Source: Escherichia coli
Lineage (GTDB): Bacteria > Pseudomonadota > Gammaproteobacteria > Enterobacterales > Enterobacteriaceae
Assembly (NCBI RefSeq): GCF_003991155.1
Contig: NZ_CP031293.1
DNA length: 64,000 nt
Strand: one strand, 5' to 3'
Shown here: one piece after another, positions 33,636 through 34,953 of the stretch
How the letters are laid out: each line of letters starts with the position of its first letter
Position numbering within the stretch: the first letter of the stretch is position 1
Position numbers and translations under genes: made by a program
Notes under the pieces: generated by a model
Told to the model about the DNA's origin: nothing
Databases searched by the model: none
Seen by the model: the letters and a program-made list of their open reading frames with translations, nothing else

Positions 33636-34953
33636 CTACTGCCAGCTAATCTGCGCCCTGCCGTTTTTCTTACTCTTATACAGCCGCTCATCCGCCAGCA
33701 TTTTCAAGCGTTCGACGGTAGGACATTCGTTTGAATGCGCTACACCGATACTGGTACTTAAATTAATGCTTCCCACCTGGAAATGAACGATTTCTTTTAG
33801 AATCGATAGCAACTCTTCCAGCGTTCCACCCGTATAAATCACCGCAAATTCGTCACCACCGAAGCGGTAGACTTTACCTTTATCTACGGGGATCTGTGAT
33901 TTAAGGATTTTCACCACTTTCATCAACACTTCATCGCCCAGCAAATGACCGAAGGTGTCGTTAATGTTTTTGAATTTATCGACGTCAAACAGGCACAAAT
34001 AACCGCCTTTTTCCGGCAGGGCTTTTAAATCTTCGTCAAAGGATTTTCTGCCCATCGCTTTGGTCAGGTCATCCAGGAACGCCGAGTTATACAGACTGTA
34101 GAGTTTTTTGACATCGGCAGCCGAAAAGAAAAGCCCACCGTCCAGGACGCGTTCAAAATGGTTATTAATAATGGCTTCTTTCTCCACAATGCCACGATTA
34201 ATCACTCTGCGTACCAGATAGAGGCAACTGGCACCCGATATCACTGCCACCAATGCAGCAAAGAAAATAATCAACATACATACCTGAAAATAAACGTCTT
34301 TTTTATACGCAAATACGTACAATCCGGTCGGCAAATAGGCGAAGTGCTCCATCGCTTCCGAAACGGTGAAGATGGCGTTTTTAGCGTTATATTCATCACC
34401 GGTCACCGATTTACCGTTCTTGAACAGGGAGAACATCAGGTTCTCGCTATCCATCGCCAGCGATTTTGACAGTAAAGAAAAACGTTCCAGACCAAGCAAA
34501 AATATCAGACTACGATTGTGAGTTACCGGATAGAGGTAATAGACGAAGGTTTTACCATCAAAAGAGATAAACCCTGTATTTTTGACATGTCGATACTTAA
34601 CAACCTGCATAATATCTGCACAATAATTTTTCTCGAACTCCTTTACCTGAATACATTCGTCACTGGAAATCAGATAAGGACCGACATCGTACAAATAAGA
34701 GGGTGAAAGCGAGTCGGCGTAAGCCAACCAACAGCTGTTCCTCCGTAGGATTTAGCGTGTTGATCAGATCAATTGCCACACTACGCCGATATTCAGCAAT
34801 ATTTGCCACCGCAAAAGCAGTATCAATAACGGACTGTTTCAGGCCATACACCCGTTCCTTTACCATTTGAGTGTAGATCCCGCAGGCAACTGCTGAAATC
34901 ATGATAAAAATCAGCAGACTGACTGTAAGTACGAATTTATTGATTCTGGACAT
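33636..34953 (-). pseudogene. dgcI: Diguanylate cyclase DgcI (YliF), interrupted by a frameshift near 34720-34730
   Basis: N-terminal 78 residues ([16 protein letters not shown]...EEQLLVGL) are in one frame (34660..34953); the remainder ([10 protein letters not shown]...GGDEF domain RFGGDEF) is in another frame (33636..34727); together about 442 aa as in K-12. Confidence 0.65.

Follow-up and report, generated by a model that had tools for sequence, protein, structure and literature searches.

In the window (the whole 64-kb stretch of Escherichia coli DNA analyzed in this work), the diguanylate cyclase gene dgcI (yliF) lacks 11 bp, and this is very probably a genuine, recent and vertically inherited deletion that destroys the full-length membrane sensor DgcI. 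In the open reading frame (ORF) listing the gene is encoded on the minus strand and follows pdeI, and the pseudogene as a whole occupies positions 33636..34953 (1318 nt vs. 1329 nt when intact). It sits between pdeI and rimO, at the same locus as K-12 DgcI (YliF), a GAPES2-GGDEF inner-membrane cyclase, with the same synteny (gsiD-pdeI-dgcI-rimO) and 96.4% nucleotide identity; the neighbors are as in K-12, plus a toxin-antitoxin pair inserted before rimO. Because 5,401 of the 5,426 complete E. coli genomes searched have dgcI at 96-100% identity to the window copy, chance is not at issue for the gene assignment. The upstream gene pdeI (yliE; 34961..37309, minus strand) is intact and encodes 782 aa, and the flanking genes are also untouched by the lesion. 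The pdeI stop codon is 7 nt upstream of the dgcI ATG; given this 7-nt gap, co-transcription is presumed, and the two genes probably form one operon.

Instead of a single uninterrupted frame of 442 codons, the dgcI coding sequence is split over two overlapping minus-strand ORFs (97 and 363 aa) that are in different frames. The 5′ fragment (34953..34660) has 97 codons, begins with MSRINKF at the native ATG (34953), and consists of 79 native codons followed by 18 out-of-frame codons and a premature TGA (34662-34660); it covers the first transmembrane helix (TM1) and runs into the GAPES2 sensor domain. The 3′ fragment (34727..33636) has 363 codons, reads (M)AYADSLSP...RFGGDEF... and ends with RAQISWQ. 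It corresponds to native residues 81-442, which comprise what remains of GAPES2, then TM2, and finally a GGDEF domain (RFGGDEF) that is intact and is matched by the domain model above cutoff. The original prediction had placed a frame switch within 34700-34740, and the switch is indeed inside this interval, with the quoted DNA and peptides matching the sequence; the split after "about 78" N-terminal codons was likewise borne out, except that the number of native codons kept is 79. The expected architecture was found on the intact allele of a sister genome, whose 442-aa protein has GAPES2 at residues 26-229 (E = 9.5e-140) and GGDEF at 295-437 in a domain search, as well as hydrophobic transmembrane helices at approximately 7-29 and 228-250. 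This protein differs from K-12 DgcI at seven of the 442 residues and keeps the GGDEF motif, and the window encodes the same residues over two frames.

The exact indel, which the original prediction had proposed to identify by alignment to K-12 dgcI, is a single 11-bp gap in the window copy. Compared with K-12 DgcI, the window copy is thus without 11 bp after codon 79, which is not a multiple of three, and no full-length product can be encoded. The closest intact allele, from strain WP2-W18-ESBL-08 (locus L003), differs from the window only by these 11 bp across 8,001 compared positions. It reads GGTTG-GCTTACGC-ACA-GCTTACGC-CGACTCG, a perfect 8-bp direct repeat with a 3-bp spacer and an 11-bp period. 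The segment missing from the window is exactly one repeat period, with one copy kept: the lone remaining GCTTACGC is at 34717..34724 on the minus strand (gcgtaagc on the plus strand) and marks the deletion junction. The prefix (237 nt) and suffix (1089 nt) shared by the two alleles add up to 8 nt more than the 1318-nt gene, which indicates an 8-bp microhomology. In K-12 the first repeat copy is imperfect (GTTTGCGC). The window-lineage allele differs from it by two changes (GGT to GGC and TTG to TTA), both of which are synonymous, and these changes result in a perfect, deletion-prone repeat; the lesion may thus illustrate, on a small scale, how synonymous substitutions can give rise to such a repeat. 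The 82-bp segment with two copies is 100% identical in 178 complete genomes. Rfam searches and promoter/terminator scans around the lesion found nothing relevant.

This pattern is most likely the signature of a slipped-strand or direct-repeat deletion, the mechanism being read from the alleles. Silent changes would have perfected the 8-bp repeat (GCTTACGC, 3-bp spacer, GCTTACGC), and replication slippage would then have dropped one 11-bp period, putting everything past codon 79 out of frame. A ribosome starting at the native ATG would make a 97-aa peptide composed of TM1, approximately 50 residues of periplasmic GAPES2, and an 18-aa nonsense tail, ending short of TM2 and GGDEF. The full-length sensor cyclase is most likely lost.

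For the distribution of the lesion, dgcI was compared with 5,426 complete E. coli genomes by megablast. The gene was detected in 5,423 of these genomes, and most matches are 11 bases longer than the window query. Thirty-three genomes carry the deletion allele at 100% identity over 1,401 bp; their sources were humans, cattle, chicken, dog, cat, pig, sheep, mink, wastewater, and surface water. A search with a 71-bp junction query ranked two-copy genomes with or above one-copy genomes, so the counts given here rest on the full-length search. No genome was found to carry the deletion allele with additional SNPs over 1.4 kb, which points to a young pseudogene. In the adjacent 25 kb, identity to the window is at least 99.9% for all 33 genomes with the deletion. 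The same holds for eight genomes whose dgcI is intact (FDAARGOS_1268, 24AR0376, WP2-W18-ESBL-08, H9, MMC-J-0091, EC-10, KOr019, and 1517k), two of which show zero differences, and beyond these 41 genomes the identity falls to 99.2% and then 98.8%. Most sequenced members of the lineage (33 vs. eight) therefore carry the deletion. The carriers include CREC-544 (PMC5884925) and MRY15-117 and MRY15-131 (PMC5430464), which are published as ST457. Based on the near-identical flanks, the deletion appears to have arisen once, inside one tight lineage that includes ST457 strains, though a site prone to slippage might in principle lose the period more than once. As an observation on the lineage itself, strain LWY24 (NZ_CP054556.1) matches the published ST457 genomes at 100% identity for 26.4 kb in the region of window positions 33600-60000, deletion included. 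This strain was published as ST93 by PCR-based MLST (PMC8025056). The ST93 label and the ST457-identical tract suggest either that the typing is discrepant or that a large tract has recombined.

The original prediction left two branches open, namely, that dgcI is inactivated in this strain or that a homopolymer or short-repeat error mimics a frameshift. The survey of related genomes favors inactivation, since the identical 11-bp deletion was found in 33 complete genomes from different groups. Its second branch was right about a short repeat, although as biology in the form of the 8-bp direct repeat, while sequencing error as the cause is effectively refuted by the concordance among independent assemblies. 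That the strain is truly dgcI-intact and the frameshift an artefact of sequencing or assembly is extremely improbable. Repeats can mislead aligners, and we found nothing positive for this explanation beyond that. Against it, an 11-bp loss is unlike a homopolymer-type error, and the same allele was recovered in independently sequenced relatives by different laboratories, from different hosts and in different years. These include PacBio assemblies corrected with Illumina reads (MRY15-117 and MRY15-131; PMC5430464), and in the eight sister genomes the assembly kept both copies of the repeat. Read in reverse complement, the window matches positions 1283044-1347043 of strain 2016C-3878 (NZ_CP029747.1) with one mismatch in 64 kb, and RefSeq/PGAP labels dgcI "frameshifted" in 2016C-3878 and WW2, whose records show no difference from the window within the gene. 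The single mismatch is at window position 25730 (C vs. A in 2016C-3878), so the window stems from a very close relative of this strain and not from the record itself. The lesion is therefore already flagged in RefSeq and is an ordinary kind of event. Product names were considered as a proxy for pseudogene status and rejected, as ET650 is intact yet named "diguanylate cyclase" and WW2 is frameshifted yet named "GGDEF domain-containing protein." In the literature on dgcI pseudogenes or frameshifts and on dgcI/yliF in ST457, we found no paper describing the 11-bp deletion. Another explanation that would spare the protein is that programmed frameshifting bypasses the frame change, or that the repeat turns the gene on and off reversibly. 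The lesion does lie at a short tandem-like repeat, and close relatives occur in two states (two copies, n = 8; one copy, n = 33). Yet the ancestral gene is in a single frame in virtually all E. coli, and inspection of 34662-34724, which takes in the 55 nt between the junction and the stop of the 5′ ORF, found no known slippery or +1 shift motif. As for a switch, the single remaining copy offers slippage no repeat to restore, and only one- and two-copy states, with no three-copy allele, were found among the 60 closest genomes. A synthetic three-copy query was non-discriminating, its flanks merging into one place as in the junction query. Recoding or switching of dgcI is thus very improbable, and an inherited deletion is the reading that we retain.

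A separate question is whether the 3′ ORF has residual function. Translated alone, from the TTG at 34727 or a later in-frame start, it would yield a sensor-truncated cyclase with no TM1 whose c-di-GMP synthesis escapes normal sensory control. We consider this unlikely, but the split gene has several features in its favor: the 3′ ORF is intact and keeps a GGDEF domain that matches its model, and its mRNA should still come from the pdeI operon. The first in-frame start is the TTG at 34727, and a GGAGG located 12 nt upstream pairs with the anti-Shine-Dalgarno sequence at -9.5 kcal/mol. There is also a precedent in Shigella, in which dgcE, dgcQ, and dgcN with stops before GGDEF still raise c-di-GMP and give rise to several protein products (PMC11327459). 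On the other hand, the 12-nt spacing and the TTG start are both suboptimal, ribosomes translating the 5′ ORF traverse the start site, and the remaining in-frame starts have weaker or no Shine-Dalgarno-like pairing. The product from TTG 34727 would lack TM1 and 55 GAPES2 residues. Without TM1, the 149 periplasmic GAPES2 residues left over would have no export signal, which makes topology and dimerization doubtful, such that a properly inserted and regulated enzyme is unlikely to result. Moreover, even intact DgcI could not be detected as a protein in K-12 under standard conditions (PMC5635695). A broader proposal is that the deletion is not a simple null, either because the 3′ ORF is re-initiated (e.g., at TTG 34727) as a deregulated, sensorless cyclase or because loss of DgcI with PdeI kept was selected and aided the spread of the lineage. 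This is less probable still; if true, selected DgcI loss would have helped a drug-resistant lineage with many hosts, ST457 strains among its members, to spread. Loss of the full-length sensor cyclase by an inherited deletion thus remains the preferred reading.

Several other natural lesions of dgcI are comparable in that one c-di-GMP enzyme is likewise lost by a small lesion. A nonsense mutation in yliF is known from the UTI isolate B-11870 (PMC5635171). Among the genomes compared, we found 1-bp frameshifts in TBE6 (L006), AR_0077 (L007), and 201609 (L008) at alignment columns 1259, 1161, and 296, respectively, in unrelated genomes, as well as IS1 insertions in two genomes (H17 and H99). Some of these 1-bp indels may be long-read assembly errors. 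Each of these other lesions was found in one genome among the records examined, whereas the 11-bp deletion is common to 33 complete genomes. The dgcE, dgcQ, and dgcN genes of Shigella flexneri resemble the window allele in having a premature stop upstream of an intact GGDEF-encoding frame (PMC11327459). However, their residual c-di-GMP production was shown by experiment, whereas the window allele is known from its sequence, and Shigella's own dgcI is intact, unlike that of the window.

The consequences for c-di-GMP signaling may be considered in light of what is known of the two proteins. E. coli has twelve or so diguanylate cyclases, and loss of dgcI may alter c-di-GMP signaling in strains with the deletion. 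When expressed, K-12 DgcI makes c-di-GMP in a GGDEF-dependent manner, and so does Shigella DgcI (PMC11757272; PMC11327459). Expression of cloned dgcI from a higher-copy vector was toxic (PMC5635695), and CFT073 became more adherent to bladder cells when yliF was deleted (PMC3484386). PdeI marks a surface-attached biofilm subpopulation and is reported to raise c-di-GMP (PMC11651652). According to the survey by Povolotsky and Hengge, as cited in PMC5635171, YliF is conserved in 61 of 61 genomes. Considering this conservation and the adherence effect in CFT073, a lineage-wide natural null would be a convenient natural experiment for the PdeI/DgcI pair, in which one diguanylate cyclase has been removed from a globally distributed lineage that includes ST457 strains. 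The loss of DgcI could matter under some conditions, and any phenotype of the lineage is speculation. The 11-bp unit in one vs. two copies is a clean clade marker. Otherwise, the practical value of the lesion is limited, and it would come as no surprise to a specialist.

The toxin-antitoxin pair near the lesion consists of genes for a RelE/ParE-family toxin (128 aa) and a helix-turn-helix antitoxin (109 aa), located at 32861-33566 on the plus strand between rimO and dgcI. The antitoxin has a weak MqsA/NadS-like match in its C-terminal part. This pair is absent from K-12, and homology to K-12 stops exactly at the dgcI stop codon. We considered and rejected a link between this insertion and the lesion: the same pair adjoins intact dgcI in WP2-W18-ESBL-08 and the more distant ET650, so its closeness to the lesion is coincidental. 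The next-best relatives of the toxin-antitoxin flank, such as 2014C-3075, also have intact dgcI. The antitoxin gene and dgcI converge, leaving 69 bp between their 3′ ends, and this gap contains a perfect hairpin at 33595-33622 (12-bp stem, 4-nt loop: TTAGTACCCCTT GATT AAGGGGTACTAA) that is part of the segment absent from K-12. It was missed by the terminator scan because it has no T-run, and it could act as a bidirectional terminator or mark an insertion boundary.

Elsewhere in the window, the only other pseudogene in the 64-kb region is a pentapeptide-repeat protein gene (3261-4499, minus strand), annotated as partial and without its C-terminus, with approximately 0.8 kb unannotated before ybjQ. 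An IS621 (IS110-family) transposase gene lies at 52745-53725 (minus strand) between ybiT and a DUF1479 gene, based on the RefSeq annotation of 2016C-3878. The RybB sRNA is found at 21292-21370 (plus strand) as a full-length Rfam match with a score of 104 bits.
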